From the IMG/VR virus record IMGVR_UViG_2526164690_000030: 54,025 nucleotides of DNA; one strand, given 5' to 3'. This DNA is from a virus (lineage: Duplodnaviria > Heunggongvirae > Uroviricota > Caudoviricetes). This document shows, one piece after another, positions 24,001 through 27,000 of the stretch. Position 1 is the stretch's first letter, and every line of letters starts with the position of its first letter. The position numbers are program-made.

Positions 24001-27000
24001 TGATGCCCTAATGGACGAATCATTAGGCAAGCCAGATAACAGAATCCATGCCGCGCCACCAGGGCCTGACAGGGCTAATTTTCGAAGTGCTACTCCACAT
24101 GGATTCGCAAAGGCAGTTTTCGAAGCGAATAAGGGGGTGCTCTATGAGTAAATCTATAGCAAGCATAGCCATAGAAAAACAGGATACGATGGCTGAAATT
24201 AGCTATATGCGCACCATTCGGACTCCGGATGAATATGAGCGTCCGATATTCAAATGGGTAGGTGGTAAATTCTCAGAATTGCCTACAGTGCTTGAGCATC
24301 TACCACACGGTAAGCGGTTAATAGAACCATTCGTTGGTGGCGGTTCCGTATTTACGAATGCAGGATTTCGCCACAACCTGCTTAATGATATTAACGGTGA
24401 CCTGATTAACTTCTATCAGACATTGCAGCGAGAAGGACATTCGCTCGTCACGCTGTCATATAGTTTTTTCCAAAATTACAACAACGCTGACGCTTACCTC
24501 GAAGTGCGTGAGGCATTTAACAGAGGAAAGTATGACCAGCTACATCATGCTGCCGCCTTTTTGTACCTTAATCGGCACTGTTTTAATGGCGTAACGCGGT
24601 ACAACCAAAATGGCGAGTTCAACGTGGGGTATGGCAAATACAAAGCGCCCTACTTCCCACATGCAGAGATGGAGGCATTTTTGGCTGATGACGTACTCAA
24701 AAACACGTCCTTTGTATCAGGTGACTTTGCTGGCGTCATCGAGGCGGCTGGTGAAGGCGATGTGATTTTTTGCGATCCGCCGTATGAACCGCTGCCGGAT
24801 ACAGAAGGGTTTACCAGTTATTCAGGAAATAGCTTCCGTTTCGACGAACAGAAACGGCTGGTATCTCTATTGGTGGAAGCCCACCAGCGCGGCGCTAAGG
24901 TAGTGATAACAAATAGTGGTGCGCCAAACATCCGTGAACTATATGAAGGAAACGGGTTTAAAGTACATCATATGGCAGCCAGACGGTCGGTGTCCTGCAA
25001 GGCGTCAACACGTGTAGTTGCTAACGATATAATTGCAATAATGAAGTAAAAAACGCCGCAGTAGCGGCGTTTACTTTTTTATGTGGCGAAATACCTATTA
25101 ACCTAACTTCGCCCAGGTATCACGCAGCCCAACGGTGCGGTTAAATACCGGTTTTTCCGCCGTAGAATGGCGGCTGTCGAGGCAGAAGTAACCTTCACGC
25201 TCAAACTGGAATGCTTTACCCGCAACCGCATCTTTCAGCGACGGTTCAGCAAAGCCCTGTTTGATCACCAGCGATTCCGGGTTAATCACCGACAGGAAAT
25301 CATCCGCAGCACCTGGGTTCGGCACGCTGAACAGACGGTCATACAAACGGATTTCAACCGGCAGCGCATGTGCCGCGCTCACCCAGTGAATAACACCTTT
25401 GACTTTACGACCATCTGCCGGATCTTTGCTTAAGGTATCGGCGTCATAAGTACAGAAGATGGTGGTGATATTACCTTCGGCATCTTTCTCGACGCGTTCT
25501 GCCTTAATCACATAAGCATTACGCAGACGCACTTCTTTACCCAGCACCAGACGTTTGTACTGCTTGTTAGCTTCTTCGCGGAAATCGGCGCGATCAATCC
25601 AAATCTCACCGCTAAACGGCACCTGACGGCTCCCCATTTCCGGTTTGTTCGGATGGTTCGGCATGGTGACCATTTCGCCTTCGCCCTGATAGTTTTCGAT
25701 AACCAGTTTCACCGGATCGATAACCGCCATTGCGCGCGGCGCATTTTCGTTGAGATCTTCACGGATGCAGGATTCCAACGACGCCATCTCAATGGTGTTG
25801 TCCTGCTTGGTCACGCCGATGCGTTTGCAGAACTCACGAATAGAAGCAGCAGTGTAACCACGACGACGCAGACCGGAAATGGTCGGCATACGCGGGTCAT
25901 CCCAGCCTTCAACGTGCTTGTCGGTCACCAGCAGGTTCAGCTTACGCTTGGACATCACAGTGTATTCCAGATTCAGGCGCGAGAATTCGTACTGGCGCGG
26001 GTGAACAGGAATGGTGATGTTGTCCAGTACCCAGTCATACAGACGACGGTTGTCCTGGAACTCAAGCGTACACAGAGAGTGCGTAATACCTTCCAGCGCA
26101 TCGCTGATGCAGTGGGTGAAGTCGTACATCGGGTAGATGCACCACTTGTTGCCAGTCTGGTGGTGTTCAGCAAACTTAATGCGGTACAGCACCGGGTCGC
26201 GCATCACGATAAACGGCGAAGCCATATCGATTTTCGCACGCAGGCAGGCTTTACCTTCTTCAAAACCACCGGCACGCATTTTTTCGAACAGCGCCAGGTT
26301 CTCTTCAACGCTGCGATCGCGGTACGGGCTATTTTTACCCGGCTGCGTCAGGGTGCCGCGGTATTCGCGGATCTGTTCCGGCGTCAGTTCGTCAACATAC
26401 GCCAGGCCTTTGTTGATCAGTTCAACAGCATAGGCATGGAGTTTGTCAAAATAATCGGAGGAGTAACGGATGTTGCCAGACCAGTGAAAACCTAACCATT
26501 CAACGTCGTTTTTAATCGACTCGACGTACTCGATATCTTCTTTTACCGGGTTAGTGTCGTCGAAACGCAGGTTGCACTGGCCTTTATAGTCCTGGGCGAT
26601 CCCGAAGTTCAGGCAGATAGATTTCGCATGACCAATATGCAGATAGCCATTCGGTTCCGGCGGGAAACGGGTATGTACTGTGGTGTGCTTACCACTGGCC
26701 AGATCTTCATCGATGATCTGACGAATAAAGTTAGTCGGGCGGGCTTCTGCCTCACTCATTGTGGATTCCTCAAAGCGTAAACAACGTATAACAGCGTATG
26801 ATCTTATAAGCCGAATAGGCTGACAACCACTAGTTGATTAGAAATTGCTTTCTATCGTTATTTCAATAATGAGCTTTTTCATGAAGCCCACTTTTGCGCA
26901 TAAGTAAATTAATGACAAATGGTACACAATTGGAACCAAAAAGGATGTAAAGGTGCACCAAATTAGTGGTGTATTGGTGCACCTTTGGTTCAAGACTTTT

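Follow-up and report, generated by a model that had tools for sequence, protein, structure and literature searches.

An apparently working, chromosome-type glutaminyl-tRNA synthetase gene carried as a predicted self-contained cassette by a D6-like phage-plasmid

The closest described counterpart of the gene studied here is orf62 of phage D6 (YP_009914739.1, "glutaminyl-tRNA synthetase, similar to E. coli GlnS"), which is the same gene at the same site, with ParA and orf61 on one side and Dam on the other. glnS was reported in all D6-like genomes, and fitness and addiction hypotheses were proposed for it (PMC6799933, 2019). Both the presence of the gene and these hypotheses are therefore already known (GenBank D6 orf62; PMC6799933). 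A second complete, housekeeping-type aminoacyl-tRNA synthetase (aaRS) on a low-copy plasmid is encoded by cysS of pBT1 in Salmonella Typhimurium ST313 D23580, for which a maintenance or fitness function was likewise proposed. Experiments on pBT1 cysS demonstrated that it is essential, that its chromosomal counterpart is silenced and that the enzyme has altered kinetics (PMC6785131). CysRS(pBT1) has lower charging ability and stability than the chromosomal enzyme, whereas the GlnRS of D6-like elements is known from its sequence and is 99.3% identical to that of E. coli. Virus-borne GlnRS homologs also occur in uncultured phages of 630–640 kb, but these are only 50–54% identical. In huge phages and giant viruses, aaRS genes belong to large sets of translation genes, whereas the element described here is a 90-kb temperate phage-plasmid with a single, recently host-derived aaRS and no tRNA-Gln gene. 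The present analysis adds the anatomy of the cassette from promoter to terminator, relatives with an empty site, strong constraint on the gene, and sequence exchange between plasmid and chromosome.

The window, that is, the whole stretch of DNA that was analyzed, comprises 54,025 nucleotides of IMG/VR record IMGVR_UViG_2526164690_000030. Positions 8871–54024 are colinear with positions 76705–32380 of phage D6, with large blocks 92.9–99.4% identical, and the D6 annotation includes P1-like tail and capsid genes, ParM and ParA. This colinearity, the P1-type virion and partition genes, and the location of glnS between par and dam identify the element as a D6-like (P1-related) phage-plasmid. The 4 kb around glnS are essentially identical to D6, and the gene itself differs from that of D6 by one nucleotide and one amino acid (L466Q in D6); it is 99.9% identical at the nucleotide level to glnS of Salmonella pYU39_89-type D6-like plasmid prophages. 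Compared with D6, the cassette is unchanged, whereas the backbone also contains an IS element and, within a Tn21-family transposon, a class 1 integron. The element carries several maintenance modules (phd-doc, higBA and two partition systems) and is rich in anti-restriction functions. No tRNA genes were found within the window, and the tRNAs of D6 are those for Ser, Thr and Asn; a phage-encoded tRNA-Gln partner for GlnRS was rejected on these grounds.

As the initial annotation had stated, the gene is flanked by phage-plasmid rather than chromosomal genes, with the Dam methylase on one side and orf61 and ParA on the other (Table 1), and the chromosomal glnS neighbors nagE and chiP are absent from its flanks. 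Its placement between a dam terminator and the partition loci was correct as to position, but the hairpin in question is bidirectional and common to dam and glnS.

Table 1. Positions of glnS, its expression signals and its neighbors in the window
Feature	Position	Strand	Details
glnS coding sequence	25098..26759	-	553 aa; ATG start, TAA stop; HIGH at aa 41, VMSKR at aa 268
Predicted glnS sigma-70 promoter	26798..26826	-	promoter scan; apparently captured from chromosome
glnS promoter -35, TTGTCA	26826-26821	-	17-nt spacer to -10
glnS promoter -10, GATCAT	26803-26798	-	includes Dam site GATC (26803-26800)
Shine-Dalgarno sequence, GAGGAA	26766..26771	-	common to chromosomal glnS
Segment homologous to E. 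coli chromosomal glnS	25102..26847	-	megablast, 96.2-97.4% nucleotide identity
Plasmid-lineage block, glnS nt 151-600	26160..26609	-	dS about 0.27 against every E. coli chromosomal allele
Bidirectional intrinsic terminator	25051..25072	.	AAACGCCGC-tact-GCGGCGTTT between A and T runs; serves convergent glnS and dam
Strong hairpin, then U-rich tract	26949..26985	-	-24.8 kcal/mol, z = -6.35
D12-class Dam-family DNA adenine methyltransferase (D6 orf63)	about 24144-25049	+	downstream of glnS, convergent
orf61 (D6 orf61)	27028-27315	-	partition module 5' of glnS
ParA-type ATPase (D6 orf60)	27308-27949	-	partition module 5' of glnS

The claim of a full-length, chromosomal-type glnS was borne out, since the open reading frame coincides exactly with the annotated interval and strand. 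Its product scored 1068.3 bits against the glnS equivalog profile (NCBIfam TIGR00440; cutoff 425.8), and GlnRS residues 28–551 matched every profile position (1–524 of 524), as a full-length equivalog does. Pfam domains tRNA-synt_1c, _C and _C2, comprising the catalytic and anticodon-binding domains, are on record for the exact protein, and both class I motifs, HIGH and a KMSKS-type VMSKR, are present. Alignment with the chromosomal enzyme showed an Escherichia-type protein: residues 1–553 are colinear with E. coli GlnRS (PDB code: 1o0b_A) and 549 of the 553 are identical, the differences being V97I, Q106K, I112V and V552L (numbered from Met1) and the absence of the terminal Glu. The locus is a complete and apparently working host-type glnS.

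The chromosomal glnS of E. coli (PDB codes: 1o0b, 1gtr, 1qtq) has the same motifs and the same promoter and Shine-Dalgarno architecture, including the GATC in the -10 element. Promoter, Shine-Dalgarno sequence and 5' UTR of the plasmid gene are almost base-for-base chromosomal, and the promoter stretch is nearly identical to the chromosomal upstream regions of E. coli, E. ruysiae and Salmonella. Homology to the chromosome begins 68–88 bp 5' of the ATG, in the -35 region, and stops 1–3 codons short of the stop codon. The plasmid gene departs from chromosomal E. coli glnS in its last two codons and its 3' UTR (the plasmid protein ends in AKLG, the chromosomal one in AKVGE), and a 450-bp block of the plasmid gene has diverged to a between-species level (dS 0.27). 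The hairpin between glnS and dam is similar to the terminators that follow chromosomal glnS in Salmonella and E. coli CFT073. The captured piece thus has the appearance of a self-contained cassette, with chromosomal -35 and -10 elements, Shine-Dalgarno sequence, coding sequence and terminator. On its other side, the strong hairpin probably terminates the parA–orf61 operon, so that transcription from upstream would be kept out of glnS. Because the native promoter, Shine-Dalgarno sequence and terminator have been kept and hairpins lie on both sides, glnS most likely forms an independent transcription unit in the plasmid prophage. A scan of the whole window for the P1 C1 operator consensus, which is that of P1 and not of D6, gave no match with up to three mismatches, and control of glnS by a P1-type C1 repressor was rejected for this reason.

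The arrangement is widespread. At least 80% of the 4-kb glnS region was found in 97 PLSDB plasmids, and about 100 complete plasmids, recovered from E. coli, Salmonella, Shigella and E. fergusonii, carry the cassette exactly where phage D6 has it. In an assembly collection, the exact GlnRS protein is indexed in 858 blocks, no contig that carries it exceeds 200 kb, and the gene order ParM-ParR-ParA-orf61-GlnRS-Dam-RdgC was seen in all 25 contigs inspected for it. Among 50,697 phage records, D6 is the sole cultured phage with a full-length GlnRS, consistent with the initial view that such a phage-borne enzyme is unusual. The cassette recurs on backbones that share only 77–86% identity in par and dam. 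Roughly one fifth of the related backbones, including sisters in the same replicon cluster, have no glnS, and the gene is therefore not needed for the phage-plasmid life cycle. Four relatives with the same backbone but without glnS (pMUB-MIN14-1, NZ_CP104667.1, one E. marmotae plasmid and one S. dysenteriae plasmid) all have a dam–orf61 spacer of about 140 bp; these relatives show that glnS is an insertion.

The dN/dS ratio was 0.022 among plasmid glnS alleles and 0.013 among chromosomal alleles, pointing to strong purifying selection on the plasmid gene. Divergence is unevenly distributed along the gene. The block at nt 151–600, which holds V97I, Q106K and I112V, stands out by its dS (Table 1), whereas nt 751–1650 are E. 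coli-like (dS 0.025–0.05). Differences from O157 glnS were found at 27 of 400 sites in nt 201–600 and at 9 of 1050 in nt 601–1650 (Fisher p = 2.8e-9; controls not significant). The glnS of pEc1079_2 has a chromosomal-type 5' part, and among close relatives the identity of glnS (96.4–98.5%) is lower than that of its flanks (98.8–99.8%). These patterns show that the plasmid alleles are mosaics, built up as the plasmid and chromosomal genes recombine. At 95% identity or more, the block was detected in 72 records among 5426 E. coli genomes, as against 76 plasmid places; since the 72 records fit within these places, few if any E. coli chromosomes carry it. No donor of the block was found among the E. 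coli genomes or in E. ruysiae, the only Escherichia species returned by the contig scan, and E. ruysiae is as distant from the block (dS 0.275) as E. coli.

From what was observed of the gene's identity and anatomy, its conservation and the selection on it, its mosaic alleles and the empty sites in relatives, we favor, with a probability of roughly 0.55, the reading that glnS is a known cargo gene ("moron") of the D6 lineage: a captured cassette that is transcribed from its own signals, encodes an active GlnRS, is selected, and recombines with the chromosome. An ancestor of the lineage would have taken the promoter-to-terminator cassette from an Escherichia-type chromosome, and the cassette now has the partition operon on one side and dam on the other. 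Its product would be a fully active GlnRS that charges host tRNA-Gln, and the plasmid copy would supplement the host enzyme by about one or two further gene doses. Purifying selection would keep glnS intact, and repeated recombination with the resident chromosomal gene would give rise to the mosaic alleles. The most likely benefit would be more, or more robust, Gln-tRNA-Gln charging for protein synthesis by the lysogen and/or the phage; a single extra dose of a synthetase has no obvious large effect on translation. Expression, enzymatic activity and the fitness effect are what we infer here from sequence, and we found no literature report on any of these for the plasmid copy.

Gene conversion from functional chromosomal alleles could also preserve the reading frame and lower dN/dS with no selection on the plasmid copy. 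glnS might accordingly be a neutral passenger that brings no benefit, hitch-hikes on a well-maintained element and has its reading frame "repaired" by the chromosome. The clear mosaicism, with chromosomal-type tracts in plasmid alleles, agrees with this idea, as do the sister backbones that lack glnS with no apparent harm and the proposal that the whole element could be selfish (PMC6799933). However, the plasmid-specific block has only three amino acid changes despite a dS of about 0.27 against E. coli, and no credible glnS pseudogene was found among 113 plasmid records covering at least 80% of the gene. Three seemingly pseudogenized copies (pFWSEC0003, pF16EC0589 and pSa1423) were rejected as typical long-read errors; the apparent frameshift indels lie at CCWGG, GATC or homopolymer sites, and pSa1423 shows 43 indels in one gene. 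Furthermore, the sampled plasmid alleles hosted by Salmonella are about 85% identical to Salmonella glnS at the nucleotide level, no closer than those hosted by E. coli; there is therefore no visible conversion from the resident chromosome, and yet these alleles are intact. A 1.8-kb cassette has also been kept in a size-limited headful genome across diverged backbones. A passenger role is thus unlikely in our view.

We judge much the same of addiction, in which the host would rely on the plasmid GlnRS, its chromosomal copy being silenced, weakened or lost, so that loss of the plasmid is penalized. Chromosomal retention in carriers was assessed by a counting argument over the E. coli collection, which contains 5427 chromosomal glnS places in 5425 genomes and 75–76 plasmid places, with at most three records holding two glnS places. 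From these counts, the chromosomal gene can be missing from no more than one of the roughly 75 E. coli genomes with a plasmid copy; the chromosome-specific 3' flank, which is blurred by variable REP sequence, reached 80% coverage in 4478 genomes only. E. coli carriers therefore keep chromosomal glnS. The initial suggestion of addiction by a captured essential gene stands insofar as the plasmid carries a complete essential aaRS with its own promoter, but its simple form is weakened by this retention, by the fifth of sister plasmids without glnS, and by the lack of an evident mechanism that would silence the chromosomal copy. The idea draws on the precedent of pBT1, where the plasmid cysS is essential and chromosomal cysS is down-regulated (PMC6785131), on its earlier proposal for D6-like glnS (PMC6799933), and on the stacking of phd-doc, higBA and two partition systems in the same element.

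A broader, speculative proposal is that glnS, beyond being cargo, actively serves maintenance or fitness. Dam has been reported to repress the promoter of chromosomal glnS (Plumbridge & Soll, 1987, as cited and reconfirmed in PMC12369378). Either a dependence like that on pBT1 cysS would operate, or the Dam-sensitive promoter beside the element's own Dam gene would make the supply of GlnRS depend on how far the phage-plasmid is replicated or methylated; the element would also shuttle segments of this one essential housekeeping gene between Escherichia lineages by gene conversion. We regard this combination as doubtful.

It is quite improbable that an extra or altered GlnRS serves in counter-defense, shielding the cell from a toxin, defense system or inhibitor directed at GlnRS or tRNA-Gln. 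The substitutions, which the initial annotation had read as possible marks of resistance, appear to be unremarkable natural variants and not changes selected for resistance. Columns 97, 106 and 112 are within the most variable fifth of 80 gammaproteobacterial GlnRS sequences (80th–97th percentile of variability), where I97, K106 and V112 are common natural states, and the C-terminal change falls after residue 547, where the shortest crystallized chain (1nyl) ends. Nor are the substitutions fixed among plasmid alleles, since pEc1079_2 has V97/Q106/I112 and pR17 has Q106. The resistance reading was rejected on column conservation and lack of fixation. A resistant or self-immunity aaRS paralog would be expected to differ markedly from the housekeeping enzyme, with changes at the substrate or inhibitor pocket; the present enzyme is 99.3% identical to housekeeping GlnRS and altered at variable columns to common residues. 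No inhibitor-biosynthesis or toxin gene adjoins glnS, whose immediate neighbors are the Dam methylase, orf61 and ParA, and we know of no toxin that targets GlnRS. What speaks for counter-defense is the wealth of anti-restriction functions in the element and a general precedent, namely mobile elements with resistant aaRS paralogs and tRNA genes.

Still less credible is a selected role of the DNA itself, with a 1.7-kb stretch of about 97% identity allowing the prophage to recombine with or integrate into the chromosome. Recombination between the plasmid and chromosomal copies evidently occurs, but homology alone requires neither an intact reading frame, promoter and Shine-Dalgarno sequence nor a dN/dS of 0.02; moreover, the block records in E. 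coli genomes fit within the number of plasmid places, so that few if any chromosomes would carry the block, and the exact allele is absent from contigs above 200 kb. An assembly chimera, with chromosomal DNA mis-joined into a plasmid contig, is effectively refuted and was rejected, as identical junctions recur in the sequenced D6 virion genome, in about 100 independently closed plasmids (97 of the PLSDB plasmids have the arrangement) and in all 25 contigs inspected out of the hundreds with the exact protein, these junctions lie at the -35 element and the terminator, outside repeats, and no chromosomal allele of E. coli matches the one in the window.

It is rare for a temperate phage or plasmid to encode an essential translation enzyme in a form nearly identical to that of the host, and D6-like elements are in circulation among STEC, Shigella and invasive Salmonella. 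If host dependence on the plasmid copy, or better fitness of host or phage, proves true, glnS of D6-like elements would be a second case, after cysS of pBT1, of the capture of an essential gene as a maintenance strategy.

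The glnS product matched the glnS equivalog profile TIGR00440 with 1068 bits against a curated cutoff of 425.8 in an NCBIfam profile search. In a search of PDB sequences, residues 1–553 aligned with E. coli GlnRS (1o0b), from which the protein differed by four substitutions (V97I, Q106K, I112V, and V552L; Met1 numbering) and by absence of the terminal Glu. The class I motifs, HIGH at residue 41 and VMSKR at residue 268, were undamaged. These data confirmed the initial annotation of a full-length gene nearly identical to enterobacterial GlnRS. The further proposal that the substitutions are resistance-type changes was unsupported: columns 97, 106, and 112 lie at the 80th–91st percentile of variability among 80 gammaproteobacterial GlnRS, the residues of the window allele are common in nature (I97 in 26, K106 in 5, and V112 in 41 of the 80), and they are not present in every plasmid allele. 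The sole difference found plasmid-wide is the extreme C-terminus, past residue 547, the final residue of the shortest crystallised chain (1nyl). None of the substituted positions is known to contact tRNA, ATP, or glutamine.

Features of the window and of the sister phage-plasmids without glnS
Feature	Location	Strand	Description
Tn21-family segment	1–8870		GC 55–66%
Low-GC segment	16270–18221		~1.95 kb, GC 38–42%, not in D6
DDE_Tnp_1 transposase	16281–17489	(-)	402 aa, within the low-GC segment
Dam-family methylase gene	24144–25049		D12 class, downstream of glnS, convergent
glnS	25098–26759	(-)	553 codons, ATG start, TAA stop
-10 GATCAT of glnS promoter	26798–26803		contains a Dam site
Tail-fibre/Cin-invertible region	49912–54024		at window end
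Empty site, L099	5255–5392		sister phage-plasmids L099–L102 are from E. coli, E. marmotae, and Shigella dysenteriae
Empty site, L100, L101, and L102	about 3350–3500		

As initially annotated, phage-plasmid genes lie on both flanks of glnS: the neighbours are not nagE and chiP, as on the chromosome, but the Dam methyltransferase gene downstream and orf61 (95 aa) and a ParA-type ATPase gene upstream. Escherichia phage D6, a relative of P1 maintained as a plasmid prophage, matches the 4 kb around glnS almost exactly, with one nucleotide differing within glnS; this 4 kb is identical to that of one 90.9-kb E. coli plasmid and 99.9% identical to pYU39_89-type Salmonella plasmids. Colinearity with D6 covers the window from 8871 to the end (D6 coordinates 76705 to 32380). 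In PLSDB, the 4-kb arrangement was present to ≥80% in 97 plasmids, and 113 records contained ≥80% of glnS; these 113 were nearly all non-mobilizable replicons of 85–97 kb with E. coli, Salmonella, Shigella, or E. fergusonii as host. The exact 553-aa protein was indexed in 858 blocks of a public assembly collection, and the order ParM-ParR-ParA-orf61-GlnRS-Dam-MTase-RdgC was found in all 25 contigs read for it. Because the same arrangement recurs in D6, PLSDB plasmids, and all 25 contigs, and the exact protein never occurs on a contig >200 kb, an assembly mis-join is excluded; the glnS finding is real and was correctly described.

Other parts of the window depart from D6. Within the backbone, the tail-fibre/Cin-invertible region is least like D6 (88–97%, rearranged matches), in agreement with published remarks that it is the most variable among D6-like elements (PMC6799933). 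The Tn21-family segment shows 99.9–100% identity to Tn21-family transposons with a TnAs1-type transposase and a class 1 integron (intI1, aadA1, sul1), and meets the backbone at D6 ~76705, just inside orf88, beside the ref gene. No PLSDB record spans at least 80% of window 1–12000. An integron-bearing D6-like element is notable because a 2025 preprint found few AMR genes on D6-like phage-plasmids. The low-GC segment stands in place of D6 68463–69279, beside a higBA-like toxin-antitoxin pair; this replacement leaves the orf72 regulator truncated and most of orf73 missing.

Comparison with related backbones indicates that glnS is an insertion. In several backbones of the same replicon cluster, the dam–orf61 gap is only ~140 bp and lacks glnS; examples are pMUB-MIN14-1, NZ_CP104667.1 (par region 97–98% identical to the window's), one E. 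marmotae plasmid, and one Shigella dysenteriae plasmid. The empty-site terminator (AAAAGCCCC-atat-GGGGCTTTT) differs from the glnS-side one, and the dam of the empty-site sisters shares only 72–84% identity with the D6 type; glnS and D6-type dam thus go together. The glnS-proximal spacer was absent from ~9 of 45 relatives in a spread sample. Given the backbones without glnS, the report of glnS in 'all D6-like genomes' (PMC6799933) is therefore true for D6 sensu stricto, but not for the wider group, and glnS is dispensable for the phage-plasmid life cycle. Some glnS-bearing backbones have par and dam as low as 77–86% identical (pEF-4 from E. fergusonii, and pTB423), which suggests either that the acquisition is old or that the cassette moves between backbones. 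The pEF-4 allele encodes 554 aa, ends …AKVEG-stop, and is ~5% off all other alleles, with flanks 77–86% identical to those in the window; conversion by an E. fergusonii chromosomal allele, or an older split, may explain this.

Megablast against 5426 complete E. coli genomes showed chromosomal homology of 96.2–97.4% at the nucleotide level, extending from 68–88 bp upstream of the ATG to 1–3 codons short of the stop. In an upstream-region alignment, the match to E. coli, to E. ruysiae, and even to Salmonella started exactly at the -35 TTGTCA and ran, with two base changes, through the -10, the 5' UTR, and the GAGGAA Shine-Dalgarno. The final two codons differ (…AKLG-stop vs chromosomal …AKVGE-stop), and a strong bidirectional terminator ~28 nt downstream of the glnS end (AAACGCCGC-tact-GCGGCGTTT) is similar to those of chromosomal glnS in Salmonella and CFT073. 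These features suggest that the cassette probably arrived with a terminator included and that the 3' end of the donor gene was unlike the E. coli K-12 one. Upstream of the promoter, on the 3' side of orf61, a highly stable hairpin with a U-rich tract after it (-24.8 kcal/mol, z = -6.35) would shield glnS from transcription of the par genes. We infer that glnS is probably a transcription unit of its own. In dam mutants, repression of the chromosomal glnS promoter is relieved (Plumbridge & Soll 1987, as cited in PMC12369378), an effect reconfirmed by RNA-seq (+1.08 log2; PMC12369378). The captured promoter has a Dam site in its -10, and the element's own Dam-family methylase gene is the convergent neighbour of glnS; phage Dam might tune plasmid glnS.

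The distribution of differences marks the window allele as a chimera. Nucleotides 151–600, which contain all three N-terminal substitutions, showed a between-species dS of 0.27 against every E. coli chromosomal allele and the same value against E. ruysiae; nucleotides 751–1650 were E. coli-like (dS 0.025–0.05). Against an O157 allele, there were 27 differences in 400 nt (201–600) vs 9 in 1050 nt (601–1650; Fisher p = 2.8e-9), and chromosome-vs-chromosome controls were flat. In the 5426 genomes, the divergent block occurred at 90–95% identity in 5428 records and at ≥95% in only 72, a number that the 76 plasmid places can accommodate, which makes the block essentially confined to plasmids. The opposite mosaic, with a 5' part of chromosomal type, was found in pEc1079_2, and among backbones with 99%-identical flanks glnS was more divergent (96.4–98.5%). 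Recurrent gene conversion between plasmid glnS and that of the resident chromosome is the simplest reading of these patterns. The Salmonella-hosted alleles sampled showed no sign of conversion by the Salmonella chromosome, because at ~85% identity they are as far from Salmonella glnS as E. coli alleles are.

Nei-Gojobori dN/dS was 0.022 across nine plasmid alleles, 0.013 across five alleles from E. coli chromosomes, and 0.023 when the two sets were compared. In the three plasmid copies without annotated glnS, the indels fall at CCWGG, GATC, or homopolymer sites or number 43 in a single gene, a pattern of long-read sequencing error rather than decay; no credible pseudogene was found among the plasmid copies. 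A neutral passenger rescued by conversion may also account for the gene.

The E. coli collection held 5427 chromosomal glnS places in 5425 genomes and 75–76 plasmid places, never more than two per genome, with at most three two-place records. At most one carrier can therefore lack chromosomal glnS, which rules out simple replacement by the plasmid copy. Addiction of the pBT1 cysS type acts by silencing the chromosomal gene (PMC6799933, PMC6785131), and addiction through a silenced chromosomal glnS may apply here. Plasmid GlnRS may instead have a counter-defence role, or the glnS DNA may serve as a homology handle.

Phage-borne synthetases are indeed unusual: tblastn against 50,697 phage records found full-length GlnRS in four kinds of record, namely D6, 'Acinetobacter phage MD-2021a' contigs, unannotated gut 'Bacteriophage sp.' contigs, and two uncultured phages of ~640 kb (50–57% identity). 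A survey cited in PMC6785131 counted 30 complete aaRS genes among 13,661 plasmids. Full-length glnS (77–87% nucleotide identity) also occurred on large non-D6 'plasmids' of Enterobacter ludwigii (133 kb), E. hormaechei (518 kb), Klebsiella pneumoniae (316 kb), and Providencia (489 kb), which may represent chromids, independent captures, or pieces of chromosome assigned to plasmids in error. The presence of glnS in the D6 lineage is already known: GenBank has listed it since deposition of the D6 genome, in which orf62 is labelled 'glutaminyl-tRNA synthetase, similar to E. coli GlnS', and in 2019 it was discussed as a moron with possible roles in fitness or plasmid maintenance, with an explicit cysS analogy (PMC6799933). 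No later experimental work on D6-like glnS was found in the literature searched. Most likely, the plasmid glnS is expressed autonomously to give a fully functional extra GlnRS, is held by selection as cargo, and trades sequence with the chromosomal gene.
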